From: Picochlorum sp. SENEW3
Taxonomy: Eukaryota
Assembly (NCBI GenBank): GCA_034226945.1
Contig: CP120459.1
Span: 1-64,000 of the forward strand
Reading direction: 5' to 3'
DNA length: 64,000 nt
The notes below the pieces were generated by a model. That model saw nothing but the letters and a program-made list of their open reading frames with translations. It had not been told where the DNA came from and did no database searches. Below are positions 3,571 to 43,484 of this stretch, piece after piece; positions within the stretch are counted from its first letter, which is position 1, and each line of letters starts with the position of its first letter. The position numbers and the translations under genes were made by a program.

Positions 3571-3642
3571 CTCATGATGTATGTAGTGAAATGATACAGG
3601 GGTATTCCCGTTTGTCAATGAGTTGAATGTCCTATCAACACG

Positions 3643-5187
3643 AATTCCGTTCGCGTCAAGGCTGTTGAGACAAGGAAGCCTGCAGTTGTCACGAAGGGCC
3701 ACGCTGATTATTTGTATATATTCACAATGAACCAAATCTATCACCACCGTAATATGACCACCACGTCCACAGAGTGAGAGAGAGAGTGAGAAAGGGGTCC
3801 CCAACAGGTTCACGGGAATGCCATTGACAGGTCTGGAGAGCCAAGACGAAGTTCTCCTCCGGGTGGGTTTCTGTACGAATCACTCGTTGATTGTTATTTC
3901 ACAATATCGCTGAATCAAATTAAGGAGACGGCAGACTACTCCAAACCTCAAGAAAGCGAATGGTTGTGAGTGTTGCCAAGAATGCCAACGAAAGCCAAAG
4001 CTGCTAATTGCGAGCATCTGTCGTCGCCACGCAAAACTGTGGACACATAAACCATGTAACATTTAATACATGTTAATGGTGGTGTTTATTACTCTTCAAG
4101 AGGAGGAGGAGTACTTGATGGGAGCGGAGTAGAGGAGAGTCTGTGTGTTGGTCTCACTGACAGTGTCCGCTCCTGGCATCCATTCGACCGGAGATATCAC
4201 GCCTGGCACGCTCGTCGTCTCTGTCCGTAAAAGACACAATAAAAAAGGTAACCACGCGACAAAAGTGGACAGTTCTGACACCAGCGTGGAAATTTTTGAT
4301 AGCACAATGGTCCGGTCCGTCGACCCGTTGGATGGTAGTAGAATAAGTCACTTTGACTCAACTCTACTCGTTTCTCTCCGTAAATGGGAACAATAAAAAA
4401 GAGCGACGGTGGTCCAGGGTTCGAGCCCAATTTTTTGGTCACAATTTTTTATTGTGTTCAATTACAACAAAAACACTGGGGTGAAATCGTTAAAATTGTC
4501 GTTAAAGTTGTCGTTAAAATTGAAAGGTCACGATTTTTTATTGTGTTCAATTACAGCAGAAAAACACTTGGGTACTTGGGAATGTGTATTTATCAGTCTG
4601 GTGTACAATTGTTGAATATGGGTTATTATACTTGCAAAAACGTCCTGCCGACACCGCAACGAATGCAAGTCCCCATTCAAAACACAGCTGGTCGTCGTCA
4701 ATTCCGTTCGCGTCACATTGGTTGGGACGAGGAGGGGGCCTGCAGAGCTGTCACCCATGGGCAGGAAGGGCCATTAATATGATTCATAGACTCATAACAA
4801 GTCCATCATACGACCCACGTATGGCCACATTCACAGAGAGGGGCCCGTAGCTGTTCCACGGGAATGCCTTGGCAATTACAGTGGACAGAGCCACGACTTC
4901 CAGGACCTCTGTTTCTCCTGATGGGTTTCTGCACGAATCGTTGATTGATATTGCAATACTTTTGAATCAAATCAATGAGACGGCAGAAAGAAACAAAACC
5001 AAGCTCAAGCAGGCGGGTGGCAGCGAGTGTGTCGCGCCAAGAGCACGCTAACTTGTTCAACCCCGTGGGTCTCACTGAACTATGTCCGCTCCTGTCATCC
5101 ATTCGACCGGAGACACAATGTCAACAACGCTCGTCGTGATATTAGTCTGTAAAAAGACACAATAAAAAAAGACGACCACGCGACAAA
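3643..5187 (+). repeat. Diverged direct duplication, 3643-4263 vs 4700-5187
   Basis: Shared blocks in the same order: aattccgttcgcgtca, cacgggaatgcc, tgggtttctg.acgaatc, tgaatcaaat.aa.gagacggcaga, ggtctcactga, tgtccgctcctg.catccattcgaccggaga, gacacaataaaaaa, accacgcgacaaa. Confidence 0.9.
4487..4522 (+). repeat. 3 x 12-bp tandem repeat TCGTTAAARTTG
   Basis: tcgttaaaattg tcgttaaagttg tcgttaaaattg. Confidence 0.95.
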
Positions 5188-5527
5188 TGTGCAAATGGCC
5201 AAATGGCCAAATGGGCATGGTCACAATTTTTTATTGTGTTCAATTACAGCAGAAAAACACTCTCTGGACGTAGCCATACATGGGTGGTATAATTATTTTA
5301 GTATGAATATGAATCATATTACTGGCCCTTCCTGCCCATGGGTGACAGCTCTGCAGGCCCCTCCTCCTCGTCCCAACTTATGTGAACGGAACTGACGACG
5401 ACCACCTGTGTTTTTCATGGGGATTTTCATTCCTCGCGGTGTCAGCAGGACGTTTTTGCAAGTATAATGGCATGTTCAATGCAATTGGACACTCTAGTAG
5501 ACTGATCGACACACATACCCAAGTACC
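4571..5527. repeat. ~270-bp diverged inverted repeat, 4571-4839 vs 5261-5527
   Basis: Reverse complement of 5261-5527 aligns to 4571-4839 (ggtacttggg...attatacttgcaaaaacgtcctgc...gcctgcagagctgtcacccatgggcaggaagggcca...cagaga). Confidence 0.92.
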
Positions 5528-5968
5528 AGAACTGTTTCCGAAGGCAAAGGTTCTCTGTTTACACAAAGGCGTAACGAATGCTGGACTCCATGGTTGAAAG
5601 GACCTGTGTGACAAAGAACAGGGAGACTCAGAGCAGGACTGTAGTTGTGTTTGGGAACGCCTTGATTAATTCAGGAAAACACGGTACAGAGAGGATATGC
5701 CTTCGAGCCCTGAAGGACCTGCTTCGGCAGAGGTGTTGTTTTGTCGAGATTGATGAATTCCAAAGTAGCCAATCCTGCAGCGGCTGTCATGCCAAAAATG
5801 CCCCCAGCAGTCGGGCTTCACAAGCGCTGGAAAGTACGCCGTTGTACGAACAATGGATGTGAGCGTGCTTTCTGGCAACTCTGAGATGTGAATGCAGCCA
5901 TCAATCTTGCCAAGTTTTTCCTGTGGCAAGCCAATGGTGAGGAGAAAGCAAAAGACCTCAGAAACTAG
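5521..5968 (+). pseudogene. Fanzor1 (eukaryotic TnpB-like) nuclease C-terminal fragment, inactivated
   Basis: FRRQRFSVYTKA*RMLD..VVVFGNA..LKDLLRQRCCFVEIDEFQSSQSCSGCH; +1 shift in the A-run 5794-5798; then WKVRRCTNNGCERAFWQL*DVNAAINL (RuvC-II Glu, C4 Zn finger, RuvC-III). Confidence 0.85.
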
Positions 5969-6033
5969 AAAAGGAGGATATCCCTGTTATTGCTACATGT
6001 GTATGATGTACAAAAGATTATACGGTATAGATA

Positions 6034-8294
6034 TTAAAATCCAGATGGGGAGCCATCTTTCCTGGGATCCGAGGCCGCATGCAGGACCCTACTAGAGGGT
6101 CCTCTGTCTATTTTGATAGCCTGAACGACAGCCCCCCAATTTGTTGCATCCCATCTATGTCCTCTTCTCTCGAGAGCCTGTAGGAGATCGTCACTGTATT
6201 CAAACGAGATGCCACCCGAACCCCAACGCTCTGCTTGCAGCGAGTCTGGCACCAACTGGTGGTGCAGTCGGGGCTGCCTCACTGCATCAAACAAGTCCTC
6301 CCCGTAGGCCACGGTTCTCAAAATTGTCTGCAAGACGGCAGAAATGATTCGAGGTCCCCAGAGAACCAATGATAAGGCGAGGTTGATTGTCTTGGAGCAA
6401 AATCATGGGGCTCATACTGCTGAGAGGTTTCTTCCCTGGATAGATGAAATTTGACTCTGATGGGGGAATGCCATACACGTTGCTCTGGCTTGGTGTCGAA
6501 AAGTCATCCATCTGATTATTCAATAAGATTCCAGTGGATGCGGAGATGACTTTACTGCCAAAGCCAGTGTTGATCGTGGAGGTGAGGGAAACAGCCATGC
6601 CAGATTGGTCCACAATGCTCATATGGGAGGTTCCATGGTCGTCTGGCGACATTCCCCGTTCGACCACATTCCATTTCCCACCATACTCTGTCACATTACG
6701 AACATTATTATCCTGAATCACAGACCGCAGTTCCTCCGCAAAAGCACGATCCAGCACATCCTCCATAATGTGCTCACTGGTTGGCCACGAGCTGCCGCTC
6801 CCTGGATCACCGAGAGACATGCGTATTGCAAAAGCGTGTTTCATGGATTCGATTATTCTATGAAATCCGAGAGTCGATATACCTGCAAGTGGAAGGCTGT
6901 AGCCCTCCAAAATCCGAAGTGCCAACAAAACTGCTGCACTGCTGCTTGGAGGTGGAGGCATGAGAAACTCCAAACCAAAGGCCTTCCCCCGAACAGGCTC
7001 CCTCAGCGTCGCATCAGCTTTCTCAAAATCCTTTTTTGTAATGATACCACCATGTTGCCGAATATCGTTCACTAAAGAGTCGGTGTACTTCCCCTTGTAG
7101 AGGGCCTCAGGACCATGGTTGGCAACTGCACAGCATGATTCATCCATGGTTCATCCTCAAATCAGCAGCGTAAATTCAGCGAATCAATCAACCGTACCAT
7201 CTTCCAGAACCTGGGCAAGCATTCCTCGCCTGCAGCAAGTCTCGTTTATTTTTGGTATCCTGTAGGAATTCAGTTTCTTGTCAAACACAAAAAATGTCCT
7301 CTTGAGATCATCTTCGGATGCCTGCACAACGAATGTACGGTGAGATTAGACAACTCATCTCTTCAAAATTATTACGGTTCAATGCATACCTTGAAATTAG
7401 CGTTCTGGAGTGAGGATACCAGATACGGATGGGCTGGAAAACCGTCCCTGGCAAGTTTAATGGCTGGCTGCAGGAGCTCTTTCCAAGGCTTTACACCATG
7501 CATAGAGTGCAGCAAGTATAGTCCTTGAAGCTCTAAAGGCACCGCAATCGCCTTTCCACCCGTCAACGAAAGGTCTGGCTTGCCCTTGAACATATTTTTC
7601 CTTGCCTTTTGGGGGGCAATCTCTCGAGCATCAATCACTTGTGCAGTGCTGTTTGGCAGTCTGCAAGTATGCATCTTGCGCGTCTGTCATTGATACGCCT
7701 TGAAGACAAAAGACAATATATGAAAACGTACCTCACCACCATAATATGCCCTCCACCAATGCCGCTGGCCATCGGATTGTATAAACCCTGACACAGGGCC
7801 GTCACCACTGCAGCATCTGCTGCATTCCCTCCGCCTCTCATCACCTCAACGCCTTGATCGGCACACCTACCATGATCTGATGCTACAGCGGCTCTTTCTG
7901 ATTCGATAAACCTGGGCCTCCCACGAAAATCGTGAAGCATGTCGTAGCTGCCGAGAATGCGTCCCTCTGGACTCACCTGGTCCTTGCCACTCCCTTGCCC
8001 ACTGCTGTAGCAAGGTGAACTGCTCCTCCCGATGTAAAAGGATCCAGCGATTCCAATAAAAGCCAGCACTGCGTGATACCATTCTATGTGTGACACGAAA
8101 TACGAGGGGACAAGAAGTAAAGGCCAACAGAACACATACCAGTCCCCACGACTCCCAGTTGCCATTGCCTGCTCCGCCCTGTCACCTGGTGCCTGCAAAT
8201 ACATTCGTATCCTATTGGTCTACTGTATCCCGAAGCCTGCAGACGAATGACATGCACATCTTACTTGTCGAGCAAACTCACGCCCTCCTGCCAT
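6034..8294 (-). CDS. GGT: Gamma-glutamyltranspeptidase (multi-exon; apparent frameshift near 6360)
   Basis: GGNAADAAV, SGIGGG, IDARE, DHGTSHMSIVD (catalytic Thr), NNQMDDFS, KPLSSMSP, SDPRKDG; N-terminal TM; start codon inferred. Confidence 0.92.
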
Positions 8295-10765: not shown

Positions 10766-12484
10766 ATGTCTTGGAATGGCGCAGAGCAGCTGCTGCAGGC
10801 CGCAAAGGACCATGGCATCACCGTTTGTTTTGCAAATCCAGGTTGGTTCGAGTGAATAATGCTATAAAAGTGGCGGGGGAGCGTGTTCGCTCAATTTGGT
10901 TGGATTCCTCTGTCGTTTGCAGGGACATCAGAGATGCACTTTGTGTCAGCCATGGACTCGGTGAAAGGGATACGGGCCATTCTGGGTCTGCATGAAACAG
11001 TGTGTACAGGTGCAGCAGATGGATACGGTAGAATGGCTAGGAGACCGGCCATGTCACTGTTGCATCTGGGCCCTGGCCTAGCAAATGGTCTGTGCAATCT
11101 CCACAATGCCCGTAGAGCAGGGACCCCCCTCGTGAATCTTGTGGGAGAGATGGCCACGTGGCACAAAGGCGCTGATCCTCTCTTGAATATGGATGTTGAG
11201 GGTATCGCGGTAAAGGTGTCAAAGGAGGTTTGGACCTGCAGGGATGGCGAGGATTTGTATCGTGCTATGGCTACTGCGTGCCTGCAAGCTCAAGCACCAC
11301 AGAAGGCCATAGGTGGCTCGAACATCTGCACTCTGATCGTTCCACATAATCTCTCGTGGGAAAAGTCACCGAAGAAGTACGATAGCCGCGGGTTTGCCCT
11401 GGAAGGAGGGTCTGGGAAAGAGGCAGCAGGGTCCCCAGAAGTTGATCTGTTTGTGCAAGACTGCGCCAAAGCTCTCTCGTCTATGCCTGACGGGAAGGTC
11501 GCACTTTATATTGGAGGTGCTGCAGCTATACAGGACGACGACGCTCTCCTCCATGTCGGAAAGATAGCATCAAAGCTAGGGGCGCCGATATATTGCGAGA
11601 ATGCATTTGGTAGACTGGACAGGGGGGCTGGTTTACCCCGCCTCACGAGGTTGCCATACTTTCCGGATGATGCTTTAAATACTTTGAAAGCATACGGGAG
11701 TATTCTGGTCGTCGATGCCCGGCGGCCGGTGGCCAATTTTGGCTATGAGAATGGCCCTTCTCATGTGATGACGCTGCCGGATGAGGATATTTGGGAGATA
11801 GACTCGGCAGATGTGCACGTGCCCACTGTTCTACGAAAGCTTTCCAAAGCGTTGGGCGCTGAAGACATCGTGCCGTCAGTAAATTGTAGAGGCAAATTCT
11901 GTGACAGAAAAGTTCCGTCCCTCCCTGCCGGCAGATTGAATGCAGCCAAATTGTGCCAGACTCTGGCAGCACTGCAGCCAAAGGAAACGATTTTGGTCGA
12001 CGAGTCACTGACGAGCGGAAATGGGTACTGGGATCTGTCACATGGCTGTGCGGCATTCTCGCACTTGGCTCTGACTGGCGGCGCTATTGGATGTGGGCCA
12101 CCACTCGCAGTGGGTGCGGCGATTGCGTGCCCTGACAGGCAAGTTATCAATTTGCAGGCGGATGGTTCTTGTATGTATAGCCTGCAGGCGCTGTGGACTC
12201 AGGCTCGAGAAAATCTCAGAGTCATCACGATTGTGTGTGCCAATAGGTCGTACCAAATTCTAAAGGTGGAGCTGGCAAAGCAGCAAATAAGCCCTAGCAA
12301 TGGCCCTTGTGCTCGAGCACTGACAGATATTGGACATCCAGCCATCGACTGGGTGGCCGTGGGGCAGGGGCTCGGTGTTCCATCACACAGGGCTGAGACA
12401 GTTGAGCAACTGGCATCCCAGCTGACGGAAGCTCTGAGTCAGCGAGAAGCGGGACCTTTCTTGATCGAGGCATGCCTCGCCTGA
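10766..12484 (+). CDS. ThDP-dependent enzyme, bacterial acetolactate-synthase-large-subunit-like / decarboxylase family
   Basis: NGAE..VCFANP|GTSEMHFV, LGLHE..CTGAADGYGRM, LHLGPGLANG, ThDP motif ADGSCMYSLQALWTQARE..CANRSY; one intron 10842-10922. Confidence 0.9.
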
Positions 12485-37572: not shown

Positions 37573-39040
37573 ATGGCCAGCAGTGCTGGGCAAAATACGT
37601 CAAAAATTCTCACCCTAAACGCTGGAAGCTCTTCTTTGAAATTTAAGATATATGAATTTGTTTCCCAATCATTGAATCCATTGGCATGGGGTGTTTGTGA
37701 GCGTGTTGGTGAACCCAAAGAGTCTACGTTCAAGGTTGGTTGTCTCTCCTTGTATTTTTTGGCACGTGGTCGTCGCCTCATTGAAGAATGGTTCCGTGTA
37801 GGCGTTTTGCAGGGATGGGAGTGAGGATGGAGGTCAGCGACCTTTCGGAGATCACGCTGCTGCCCTTGATGCTGTATCAGACTATCTGCAGGGCAAATTT
37901 AGCAAGAGTATCGCATGGGAAGTGGCTGGCGTTGGTCATCGGGTGGTTCATGGGAAAACTATCAGTGATCCACTAATGGTAACGTACGATCTGGTATTTT
38001 TCCTTCGACACGGGATGGGAACTGTTTTTGTGCATGTCAACAGCGTGGATGCTATGCAGGGCAGATGTCAAAAAACTGATACAGGACGCATCAGACCTGG
38101 CTCCGCTGCATAATCCAGCCAATGTAAAAGGTATCGATGCTGCAGAAAAGACATTTCCCAAAGCTGTGCAGGTAGCGGTGTTTGACACGGCATTCCACCA
38201 GACCATGCCACCAGAGGCGTACACGTATGCTCTTCCGAAGGAGATTTGTGATTCCTACCATCTCAGAAAGTATGGATTTCACGGAACGAGTTACAAATAT
38301 CTATGTGGAAGGGCAGCTGCTATGGTGGGAAAATCTGTGGAGAATTTCAACGGAATCATGTGCCACCTTGGCGCAGGTGCATCCGTCTGTGTTGTTCAAA
38401 ATGGAAAATCTATCGACACGACAATGGGATTGACGCCTCTTCAAGGACTTATGATGGCTACTCGTTGTGGTGCGTGTATTCAAATAAGTCTGTTGTATCT
38501 TTCCAGTGATGTTTCCTGATCCACTCTCAATGTATGTATGCAGGCGATGTGGACCCCTCCATTGTTGCCTTTCTAGATTCCAAAGGTATTGACGCTCAAC
38601 ATGTAGAGGTCATGATGAACAAAAAGAGTGGATTTTTAGGTCTTACTGGGCAAACAGATATCAGGGAGGTGCACAAGAAGGCTGATGCTGGAGATGAAGA
38701 TGCTTGTCTAGCCCTGAAACTGTTTGCTCGCCGGGTAAAAAATTACATCGGCGCATATATGTTCCAATTGAATGGAGATCTTGATGCTATTGTCTTCACG
38801 GCGGGTATAGGCGAGCATGACTCGGCGATGAGGACAATGATTTGTGACAGCATGGGTTGGGCTGGTGTTGTCCTCGACACAGATTTGAATGCTAGTAAAG
38901 AAGCAACTTCGGGCGAGAACTCGGTTGCGATTCATCATTCAACTTCTAAAGTATCAATTTTAGTGATGCCCACTGATGAAGAGGGCTCTATTGCCGAGCA
39001 AACTTTGGCTGTGATGAAGCAGGAGCACTGTGCCATGTGA
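37573..39040 (+). CDS. ACK: Acetate kinase
   Basis: LNAGSSSLKF, GHRVVHG, APLHNP, VFDTAFHQT, YGFHGTSY, CHLGAGAS, VFTAGIGE, PTDEE; introns. Confidence 0.97.
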
Positions 39041-40939: not shown

Positions 40940-43484
40940 ATGAGACACACTGTCTCGTGTCTAAGAAGGTATGTGACCGGTTGATGCAGCATGAGAGGCT
41001 TGGGTCCAATTTATTTCGTCACGGTTGCGGTTTGCAGGTTACAAGGATCACTGTTTGGCACCGTATCGAGATCAGGCTTCATCCCCACATCGCGACATCT
41101 TTGCATCGACGAGTCTGCTGGCAGAATGTCAGATTCGATCATTGTGACAAACATATCTGGGACTGGTGGAATATCACCAATCATCCTTGGATTGTTTGAA
41201 TATTTTCAGGTGTGTTCATTTTGATCGGTATCGTGACTACCCGTGTGCATGAGCCTAACGGTTTGCTGTTTTTTTCTAACTCAGAGGCATACACCTAGCG
41301 TTGGGTATTTTTTACCAATCGCCAAGCCCAAGAGCGACCGAGACCCTTATTCTGAGAGACTGCACCTCATCAGGTCAGAATTTAAATTGGAGGATGATCC
41401 CGACAGCATGCAAGGCATTCTGGAGAGCGAGGCAGAAGATATGCTTGCAAATGGGCAGAGTGATGAGTTGGTAGAGAGGATATGGTCCAAATTTTCAGAG
41501 TATAAACGAAAGAAAGGGATTGTGATCATTGAAGGCATTTCTGTGTCTGGGGTGAGTAACGAGATAGAAATCAATGGACGGCTAGCAGCAGACTTGGGCT
41601 CTCCTGTACTCATGGTCTTTGATGCCATGGACGACGAAAGCCTGACCTCTACAGAGATACTCACGAAAGTTCAGATTGCGAAAAAGAAATTTATGGACTG
41701 TCATGCAGACCTTGTGGGTTTGGTATTAAATCGCGTTCCAAAGAAAAACGTGCACAAATTGACGGCAGAGATGGAAGAACTTGCTGCCAGAGAGCACAGT
41801 TGTGCATTTGCAGGGGCCATACCGTCTGACTACATCCTGCAAAGCCCGAGGTTGAACGAAGTTGTGACGCATCTCAAGGCAAAGTGGTTATTTGGCGACT
41901 TGGAGGATTCTGACGTGGATGCGAGTCAGATGATGGTCGCCGCCCAAGACGTATCTCATCTGTTCAAAAAGATTGAACATCTCACAGAGATTCGGCGAAA
42001 GGAGGGCCTGCCCTCTGTCAGACCACTGTTGCTCACGACGCCTGATAGGACGGATATTCTCTTGAAGCTAGCTGCAGCGCATGGAAGTTCAACAGGACCA
42101 AACGTATCTGGTGTGCTGCTGTGTGACGCCGACCAAACGGCTCTCGATAGCCATGTGAAACGAATTTTTGCTGCATTCCCACACATATTTCCTGTGTTTG
42201 CTGCAAAGACAGGCCTATATGAGACAGCAAATCGTGTATCACATGCTCATACTCGTATCATACCAACCTCTACAGCAAAAATTAACAGATCCAAAAGGCT
42301 ATTCAACGAGTACATCAACACAAAGTTGATTGGAAAACGTCTTGTACTTCCCAAGTCAAGCAAAATCACTCCAAAACAGTTTATCCATGAAATTCACGGT
42401 GCATGCAGGGATAATAAGAAACATATTGTTTTACCAGAGGTATGAAACTGTCCAGGGCGTGATAACAATGCCCTTTGGTCTGGCGTCCTAAACTGAAAAA
42501 GATGTGTTCCATTTGCAGGGCCAAGATCGACGAATTTTGCAGGCAGCAGCTGAAATCACCACAAAAGGTTTGGCAGACATAACATTGCTCGGTGATCCAG
42601 TTGAAATTGTTGCATCAGCTCGCAAATTTAATGTGGACATTTCAAAGTGTGCCATCATTGACTATCTAAATTCTCCGTTGAAAGAAAGGTTTGCAAAACT
42701 CTGGAGTGAAGAGAGGAAAGAGAAAGGAGCAACGTATGAGACCTCTCTGAACCTGATGGATGATTTGAATGTATTTGGAACTATGATGGTAAAAGATGGC
42801 ATGGCAGATGGCATGGTCAGCGGTGCAATGTGTACGACAGCAAACACAATTCGCCCTGCACTCTCAATACTGAAACAACCGGAGAAAACGCTCGTTTCTT
42901 CGGTGTTTTTGATGTGCCTGCCTGATACGGTGCTGGTATACGGAGATTGTGCAATCAACGTGGATCCGACCGCAGAGCAACTAGCACAGATTGCCGCTAC
43001 TTCTGCAGAAACTGCGACCAGTTTTGGTGTGGATGCCAAAGTTGCCATGCTGTCATATTCCACCCTGGGATCAGGTGCTGGCCCAGCCGTAGAGAAGGTC
43101 AAGCGTGCAACAGAAATTCTGAAGAAGGATTATCCAAACCTGAAAGTGGACGGTCCCATACAGTACGATGCTGCGATAGATCCACAAGTGGCCTCCACCA
43201 AGGTGAAGGAGAAGAGCGATGTGGCAGGGAAGGCGACAGTCTTCATTTTCCCTGATTTAAACACAGGAAACAACACTTACAAGGCAGTACAGCAATCTAC
43301 AGGAGCACTTGCCATCGGGCCACTTATCCAAGGCCTGGCGAAACCTGTGAATGACCTGTCAAGGGGCTGCACTGTGGCAGACATTGTAAATACTGTAAGC
43401 TGCACAGCCATCCAAGCAATGTCATCTTCTGTCGTGATGAACAGGTTCTTGTCGCGTGTCAGCACATTTAGATTAGTCGACTAA
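40940..43484 (+). CDS. PAT: Phosphate acetyltransferase, long form (BioD-like/DRTGG plus PTA domains)
   Basis: KHIVLPE|GQDRRIL, GMVSGA..TTANTIRPAL, DGPIQYDAA, FPDLNTGNNTYKAVQ, KPVNDLSRG; start exon inferred. Confidence 0.95.

Follow-up and report, generated by a model that had tools for sequence, protein, structure and literature searches.

We report that the first 64,000 nucleotides of contig CP120459.1 of Picochlorum sp. SENEW3 (assembly GCA_034226945.1), the whole stretch of DNA that was analysed and is called the window below, almost certainly contain a dead, 5′-truncated pseudogene fragment of Fanzor1 at positions 5524-5988 of the forward strand; the host is a Picochlorum-like green alga. 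Fanzor1 proteins are eukaryotic, transposon-borne homologues of TnpB. The remnant comprises the last ~155 codons of the gene, spread over three reading frames; as its relatives are 617 to ~1000 amino acids (aa) long, what remains is between a sixth and a quarter of the protein, from its C-terminus. It cannot make a nuclease because of the 5′ truncation, a TAA codon, two frameshifts and a TGA codon, and an intact nuclease open reading frame (ORF) is not present at this site. The relic is real but non-functional, and it is an ordinary one of an already known kind.

Frame 1 reads from 5521 as KYQNCFRRQRFSVYTKA, meets the TAA at 5572-5574 and continues as RMLDSMVERTCVTKNRETQSRTVVVFGNALINSGKHGTERICLRALKDLLRQRCCFVEIDEFQSSQSCSGCHAK (RMLDS...CSGCHAK) towards an A5 run located at 5794-5798. 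Frame 2, starting from 5798, encodes MPPAVGLHKRWKVRRCTNNGCERAFWQL, then TGA at 5882-5884, then DVNAAINLAKFFLWQANGEEKAKDLRN, and ends with TAG at 5966-5968. Both in-frame stops and the A5 run had been pointed out in a first-pass annotation of this DNA and are present as it described them; the limits 5521-5968 which it gave to the remnant are replaced here by 5524-5988. For database searches a 130-residue read-through of the remnant, designated P0001, was used, with X placed at the frameshift and at the TGA. In tblastn with 12 relatives as queries the window was matched between 5521 and 5962 at most, and elsewhere in the 64 kb there were chance matches only (E of at least 0.1). Residues 769-911 of the 948-aa relative P0004 align to 5527-5944, whereas residues 1-768 have no match anywhere in the 64-kb window. 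By the same searches the start codon, the WED and REC lobes and the RuvC-I Asp of a Fanzor1 gene are absent throughout the 64 kb. Since the RuvC-I motif DPG is present in the relatives P0004, P0135 and P0137, its absence from the window reflects truncation and not a different family; the TDG motif of the WED domain and the extended REC lobe have been lost in the same way.

As judged from the sequence profile of its long relatives and from the modelled fold of one relative, the family of the remnant is Fanzor1. The PF07282 match, the profile and the fold all agree with the identity proposed in the first-pass annotation. HMMER search of P0001 against 1.84 billion representative proteins gave 128 matches at E≤1e-3, 17 at E≤1e-10 and two at E≤1e-30, which in terms of sequence similarity is far beyond chance. 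The OrfB zinc-ribbon profile by which the first-pass annotation had proposed to judge its assignment, PF07282 (Cas12f1-like TNB), matched residues 52-111 of P0001 with E=2.3e-5, and the refuting outcome named there did not arise. The match takes in positions 15-60 of the 60 in the profile and, at 24.9 bits, falls slightly short of the cut-off. When the pieces were left unjoined the first one scored 14.3-14.5 bits (E=0.04-0.05) and the second gave nothing; a scan of the two unjoined pieces against NCBIfam returned no match, and an FtsK_gamma match to an unjoined piece (E=0.0053, below the cut-off) was taken as chance. The best long relatives, P0004, P0005, P0006 and P0008, are 948-1003 aa long, share 45-56% identity with the read-through and are matched at their C-terminal ends (e.g. 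residues 786-911 of 948). PF07282 was detected at E≤0.01 in 16 of the 18 top relatives scanned and passed its threshold in nine; no other family exceeded its cut-off in these 18 proteins.

In an alignment of 21 long relatives (A1) the T-D-G motif, the D-P-G of RuvC-I, the Gly of ..VVxxG(D/N)A, the Glu of DEF, four Cys residues and R-D-x-N-A are invariant or nearly so. TDG is characteristic of the Fanzor1 WED domain and, together with the extended REC lobe, separates Fanzor1 from Fanzor2 and TnpB (Yoon et al. 2023). The A1 profile matched three distinct sequences in PDB at E≤0.01, all of them Fanzor1: SpuFz1 of Spizellomyces punctatus (8GKH, 9CEU-9CEZ; 5.2e-24), GtFz1 of Guillardia theta (9CER; 2.2e-20) and PpFz1 of Parasitella parasitica (9CF0; 8.2e-20). 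A single-sequence search with P0004 matched SpuFz1 weakly (E=0.12). A word-indexed search for longer proteins yielded P0135, a protein of 413 aa with 68% identity over 98% of the read-through (BLASTP E=1e-59). It was folded with AlphaFold from a 40-sequence alignment (A4), giving a mean predicted local distance difference test (pLDDT) score of 81.9 and a predicted template modelling (pTM) score of 0.71. In a Foldseek comparison of this model with PDB, Fanzor1 structures took ranks 1-7 (3e-10 to 4e-7) and were followed by Cas12 variants, with ISDra2 TnpB at rank 17 and the mimivirus Fanzor2 at rank 27. By profile and fold, both taken on the relatives and not on the remnant alone, the group is thus closer to Fanzor1 than to Fanzor2, TnpB or Cas12. 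The solved Fanzor1 proteins share with the relatives of the remnant TDG, DPG, G(D/N), the alternative Glu, the C4 ribbon and the RD layout, although identity to the P0135 model in structural alignments is 12-17%. The long relatives (948-1003 aa) exceed the solved proteins in length, whereas all that the window has of the gene is its final ~155 codons, in broken form.

The part that has been retained can be divided as follows. It begins at 5524-5571 (+) with the end of a long Arg-rich helix preceding RuvC-II (YQNCFRRQRFSVYTKA), of which QNCFRRQRFSVY is identical in P0007 and P0135; this helix corresponds to helix H256-281 of the P0135 model, and by its position it would be the bridge helix. The RuvC-II β-strand TVVVFGN follows at 5638-5658 (+) and corresponds to strand E293-298 of the model. 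In its VVVFGN part (5641-5658), G(N/D) of the Fanzor type takes the place of the Glu of canonical TnpB, and this Gly does not vary in A4. At 5755-5757 (+), six residues ahead of the first CxxC, comes the codon of the alternative catalytic Glu (IDEF, within IDEFQSSQSCSGC); this Glu is invariant in alignments A1, A3 and A4 and agrees with the ExxxxxxCxxC pattern that Yoon et al. describe. The remnant thus shows the rearranged RuvC-II, with Gly replacing the canonical Glu and an alternative Glu downstream. Such a rearranged catalytic Glu has been described for Fanzor1 (Jiang 2023; Yoon 2023), and Fanzor2 has it too. The Gly and the alternative Glu are 34 codons apart in the remnant, while the conserved Gly and Glu of Fanzor1 have been given as 36 residues apart (G500/E536) by Bao & Jurka 2013.

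The C4 zinc ribbon extends over 5776-5860 (+), with CSGC at 5776-5787 and CTNNGC at 5843-5860; the frameshift splits the two, and the Cys columns are invariant in relatives. It is followed at 5885-5947 (+) by the RuvC-III Asp and the subsequent helix (DVNAAINLAKFFLWQANGEEK, DVNAAINL), where relatives show little or no variation at the D, N and A positions, and at 5950-5988 (+), in the third frame, by the C-terminal tail KRPQKLEKEDIPV, which matches ...RPRTRAEEDIPDV at the end of P0025. The C-terminal motif of Fanzor1, given by Bao & Jurka as [TS]-[TS]-x-x-C4 zinc finger-x(5,50)-RD, is recognizable but damaged in the remnant, SS-QS-CSGC...CTNNGC-ERAFWQ-(L*)D, the damage being the frameshift between the Cys pairs and a 3-nt insertion which splits the Arg codon.

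The 5′ break of the remnant is located at 5524-5528. As the first-pass annotation stated, it adjoins the arm of an inverted repeat: an inverted, partial copy of a high-copy repeat lies at 5260-5528 (-) with its natural start next to the break, and a direct-orientation copy of the same repeat, the left arm, was found by blastn at 4562-4840 (+). The blastn alignment pairs 5260-5537 with 4840-4562 at 81% identity, and solid identity is retained until 5527/5528. Ten loose ends at 5261 in the contigs of coded run X1 proceed with the repeat start TGGGTACTTGGG..., which in other copies of the repeat comes after a 43-nt motif. The history of the locus was most likely the following. A parent element would have inserted beside the 3′ end of the gene for γ-glutamyltranspeptidase (GGT), its upstream part would have been lost at a breakpoint coinciding with the terminus of the inverted repeat copy, and the leftover piece would then have drifted neutrally.

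It is also conceivable, though in our judgement unlikely, that the truncation is original, i.e. that the copy arrived already truncated through one-ended, rolling-circle-like transposition, as for CRe-1/2/3 of Chlamydomonas reinhardtii, and not through later repeat insertion and deletion. 5′-truncated, 3′-intact copies of green-algal Fanzor1 elements have been described (Bao & Jurka 2013), the upstream repeat ends in the short hairpin motif CACAAT-TTTTT-ATTGTG, and the summed contig depth in runs X1, X3 and X9, which is depth and not copy number, peaks over 5816-5917 and is lower over 5663-5815. The position of the break, within a few bases of the natural start of the inverted repeat, is however what is expected from insertion of the repeat into the gene. 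Moreover, neither Helitron-type ends nor a Rep/helicase ORF have been found in the window, and the similarity of paralogues to the locus stops near 5950-5990, so that an intact 3′ end of the element is not evident. Helitron2-type ends on the upstream repeat were judged by eye and were not convincing.

The repeat itself belongs to an unclassified high-copy family occupying 3600-5537, with two ~1-kb direct copies at 3600-4568 and 4562-5261. Each direct copy ends in the 43-nt motif bearing the small hairpin, and the motif occurs also at 4437-4479. Thousands of X1 contigs match the region 5000-6500 (2965), most densely over the repeat part. The whole segment 1-6289 is a repeat-rich end without genes; it contains no ORF of at least 170 aa and has a GC content of 34-47%, compared with about 50% further on. 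At the start of the window CCCTATA-like repeats come after the first ~22 bases and are followed by about 1.5 kb of A/C-rich low-complexity sequence. Those first ~22 bases look like a nanopore sequencing adapter, and the window start is probably a contig end with an untrimmed adapter.

The lesions downstream of the break were defined against proteins P0007, P0009, P0025 and P0135, their alignment, and contigs of the coded runs X1, X3 and X9. The premature TAA at 5572-5574 (+) replaces a Gln codon (CAA) of the relatives (Q in P0007 and P0135); other contigs carry C at 5572 (632 of 632 depth in X3, 247 of 247 in X9 and 1395 of 2274 in X1). The first frameshift falls at 5794-5800 (+), where AATG stands for the 9 nt found in paralogues (AKLED/AKLEP; P0009, P0135); an X3 loose end before 5801 reads ...GCCAAATTGGAGGAC. 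What the first-pass annotation had interpreted as one +1 frameshift is instead a net loss of 5 nt relative to paralogous copies, which alters the frame like one extra base. The TGA, also taken there for a stop, is present, but it originates from a 3-nt insertion within the CGA (Arg) codon of the RD motif, giving CTC TGA at 5879-5884 (+) and WQL*DVN versus WQ-RDVN in relatives. At 5880 these three nucleotides are lacking from a multi-copy X3 contig (1404 of 1793 depth), two X1 contigs and one X9 contig; the X3 contig continuing into GGT retains them. At the second frameshift, 5948-5952 (+), about 10 nt are missing in comparison with EEK-PTVFQ-RP in P0025. The paralogues end with ...EEKPTVFQRPRTRAEEDIPDV (P0025) and ...DKDKVFRRPCRLDEDDVPDV (P0135), and the X3 loose end after 5951 is CAGTTTTCCAAAGGC.

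Introns were considered as the reason for the frame changes and rejected, because the homology is unbroken across each site, with 0-10 nt missing or 3 added. An alternative genetic code in which TAA specifies Gln, as in ciliates, was rejected as well: other copies have CAA at 5572, and the GGT gene has its TAA stop just where its Pfam profile runs out (512/512), which argues for the standard code.

Several contigs link the damage to this very locus. X3 record 16 (5434-5598, five differences, no gaps) spans the 5′ junction at 5527, and X3 record 19 (774 nt) and X9 record 27 (29,767 nt) are continuous from the remnant into GGT. As far as these contig sequences go, the same locus in related organisms has the truncation as well as the first frameshift and the TGA insertion, and the TAA at 5572 would be younger, since it is missing from the X3 contig that spans the 5′ junction. 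Many variant contigs overlap the remnant, with another letter at 5572 in 12 X1 and five X9 contigs; from the number of distinct variants the family appears to be multi-copy in those organisms. The closest protein records, P0002, P0007 (91%) and P0025 (88%), are all short fragments of 51-171 aa, and P0002 contains the same frameshift read-through as the remnant.

That the frameshift at the A5 run is a long-read homopolymer error of the assembly, and the piece therefore less broken than it appears, is very improbable. In its favour two other genes of the window change frame, GGT at a short C run that leaves no space for an intron and that for acetate kinase within a 7-nt ORF overlap, and one A is missing at 5794 in five X1 contigs. 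The start of the window, which looks adapter-like, counts on the same side. Yet X3 record 17 (5573-5877) and X9 record 24 (5573-5886) span the first frameshift, including the A5 run at 5794-5798, with 0 gaps, which speaks against an assembly error. The X1 indels are suspect, given that one-base losses occur there also at 5164, 5227, 5411, 5969, 6111 and 6132, and even with A4 in place of A5 the copy would still be without its first three quarters and still carry the TAA, the TGA and the second frameshift.

On its 3′ side the pseudogene fragment faces the convergent GGT gene at 6034-8219 (-), identified by PF01019 on three ORFs, the last of which reaches profile position 512/512. Its TAA stop (6034-6036) lies 65 bp past the TAG of the remnant, in agreement with the ~65 bp indicated by the first-pass annotation, but the true gap is 45 bp, since coding homology continues to 5988. 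Two GGT ORFs in different frames meet at 6347-6357 (-), where their Pfam matches overlap (169-422 and 420-512) and leave no room for an intron; a C4 run is located at 6356-6359, and the change of frame is either a real frameshift in GGT or a homopolymer indel of the assembly. The expectation that an omega RNA or Fanzor RNA (fRNA), a target-adjacent motif and a partner transposase survive at the locus has found no support. There are no Rfam families or tRNAs in the window, and the predicted fold of 5880-6040 (-32.1 kcal/mol) is no better than the mean of shuffled sequences (-30.0; z=-0.61), 53 of 200 shuffles being equal or better. No transposase domain was detected among the 36 long ORFs scanned in the window. 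Element ends were likewise not found at the locus, neither target site duplications (TSDs) nor Helitron ends, and no structured 3′ RNA was found.

RNA over this region has been detected in the oligo-dT metatranscriptome coded as run X18, in which two contigs of depth 2-3 are identical to 5852-6015 and 6033-6185; stretches without cover in this run are uninformative either way. Most simply this RNA is the 3′ untranslated region of GGT, antisense to the remnant, and nothing suggests that a guide RNA is still made from the remnant. The X18 contigs stop at 6015 and restart at 6033, with ten unmatched letters before the restart, a hint that the X18 population differs by a small indel directly beyond the GGT stop codon. 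The idea that the locus is a standalone guide-RNA ("ghost") locus, whose 3′ end still makes an omega RNA or fRNA used in trans by intact Fanzor1 copies, seems to us scarcely tenable. Standalone ghost loci are mentioned for S. punctatus by Saito et al. 2023, the RNA contigs do lie over 5852-6015 and 6033-6185, and the 3′ part of the remnant is the one with most matching contigs in the three runs X1, X3 and X9. Set against this, only 45 bp separate the end of the coding homology from the GGT stop, 5880-6040 has neither a fold better than its shuffles nor an Rfam match, the tail of the remnant has lost about 10 nt and gained a 3-nt insertion, and the RNA contigs run on into GGT coding sequence, which is what a 3′ untranslated region of GGT would do.

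The RNA is also one of a number of observations which weigh against regarding the piece as a dead Fanzor1 fragment: the X18 contigs are strandless, they show the 3′ part of the remnant in RNA, and RNA from the + strand is compatible with them. In addition, the PF07282 score of the read-through stays 1.4 bits below the gathering threshold of 26.3. In phmmer searches of PDB sequences the read-through and P0135 gave chance matches only (best E=4.1 with a cytochrome c and 0.88 with a methylase, respectively), so that Fanzor1 membership depends on the relatives, the profile and the fold. The features retained by the remnant (the G...E pair, ExxxxxxCxxC, the C4 ribbon and RD) are only those common to Fanzor1 and Fanzor2, and they occur also in "alternative-Glu" TnpBs. 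Searches for paralogue DNA were unproductive too: alignment A3 gave 278 pattern matches in metagenome contigs, of which 0 were confirmed, and a degenerate DNA pattern for DVNAAINLAKFF had 0 matches in metagenome, genome and viral contigs. With A3 one distant locus was obtained from viral contigs (L001, 37%) and one from genome contigs (L002, 30%). The latter is situated at 1208-1552 of a 2282-nt contig in a metagenome-assembled genome (MAG) labelled Nocardiopsaceae and is 30% identical to read-through residues 16-123; a bacterial TnpB is conceivable here, as is a eukaryotic contig that was binned wrongly.

That the remnant derives from a bacterial TnpB or an IS607-type Fanzor2 is hardly credible: PF07282 spans TnpB, Fanzor1 and Fanzor2 alike, and the alternative Glu, the C4 ribbon and RD are shared with Fanzor2 and some TnpBs (Yoon et al. 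2023), but the closest relatives are proteins of 617-1003 aa with the Fanzor1 TDG motif, their profile matches Fanzor1 structures only, the fold places Fanzor1 ahead of TnpB and Fanzor2, and the genes flanking the remnant are eukaryotic.

The window is gene-dense, with eukaryotic housekeeping genes including those for GGT, Myb, DHHC, ALIX, IspD, a fused GlyRS and acetate kinase/phosphate acetyltransferase. An ORF for a thiamine pyrophosphate (TPP) enzyme at 10868-12481 belongs to a cluster, drawn at 90% identity, that also contains proteins from Picochlorum sp. BPE23, Picochlorum sp. SENEW3 and P. renovo; the next named matches are Chlorellales at 56-61%. The host is accordingly taken to be Picochlorum or a trebouxiophyte very near to it. 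Acetate kinase is encoded at 37983-39037 (+) by two ORFs in different frames with a 7-nt overlap (profile positions 102-252 and 240-392); a frameshift, an intron of very small size or an indel of the assembly may account for the split. The phosphate acetyltransferase gene is located after it, at 41237-43481.

Fanzor1 proteins have been characterized as omega-RNA-guided DNA endonucleases of fungi, protists, arthropods, plants and giant viruses by Saito et al. 2023, and Jiang et al. 2023 report 3655 putative nucleases, which reach as many as 122 copies in a genome and are associated with many transposon families. Among green algae, the most abundant repeat of the trebouxiophyte Auxenochlorella is a Fanzor-encoding element. 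The Helitron2 elements CRe-1/2/3 of C. reinhardtii, which are non-autonomous and carry Fanzor1, are a green-algal case with many 5′-truncated copies (Bao & Jurka 2013, Mob DNA 4:12); in contrast to them, no Helitron ends, TSDs or Rep/helicase have been found at the locus of the remnant. The text passages seen from the literature on Picochlorum with Fanzor or TnpB describe no Picochlorum Fanzor, and the word Picochlorum is absent from those supplements of Jiang 2023 (two files) and Saito 2023 (nine files) that were searched. Four Fanzor hits by hidden Markov model from Picochlorum sp. BPE23, of the same genus as the closest housekeeping matches of the window, are listed in Table S2 of Yoon et al. 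2023 (Nucleic Acids Res 51:12414): KAI8106033.1, KAI8102625.1, KAI8107949.1 and KAI8112075.1, of 731-803 aa and with the TDG motif. None of the BPE23 proteins is among the relatives recovered here, as checked by three short motifs, and they probably belong to another subfamily than the remnant.

A known protein of the same family comes from P. renovo. The gene model NNA_004002.t2 (P0137; EukProt EP00889 P001571, 617 aa, annotated as "hypothetical protein") is in the 90% cluster of P0135 and shares with the remnant its motifs and the C-terminal end ...DVPDV. Unlike the remnant it has no interruption along its 617 aa, and TDG, DPG, the alternative Glu and RD are all intact. Of the 948 residues of P0004 it covers 385-927, and the gene model may miss its own N-terminus. 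The proposal made in the first-pass annotation that intact copies may exist elsewhere has thus been borne out in part, namely in a congener.

Taken alone, the remnant matters little, since Fanzor1 genes, whole or decayed, occur widely among eukaryotes and Picochlorum Fanzor hits have already been published. Its value is that of a pointer to a second, large Fanzor1 family hosted by this Picochlorum lineage, of which the P. renovo ORF looks intact over 617 residues and several decayed copies exist in related organisms. We would suggest, tentatively and with more doubt than confidence, that the relic marks a still-active, undescribed Picochlorum Fanzor1 subfamily, residing on an uncharacterised element which spreads as 5′-truncated copies; its relatives would then include the 617-aa P. 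renovo ORF and the metagenome proteins of 948-1003 aa. If this were true, a fast-growing alga of biotechnological use, with a very compact genome, would have an RNA-guided nuclease and guide RNA of its own.

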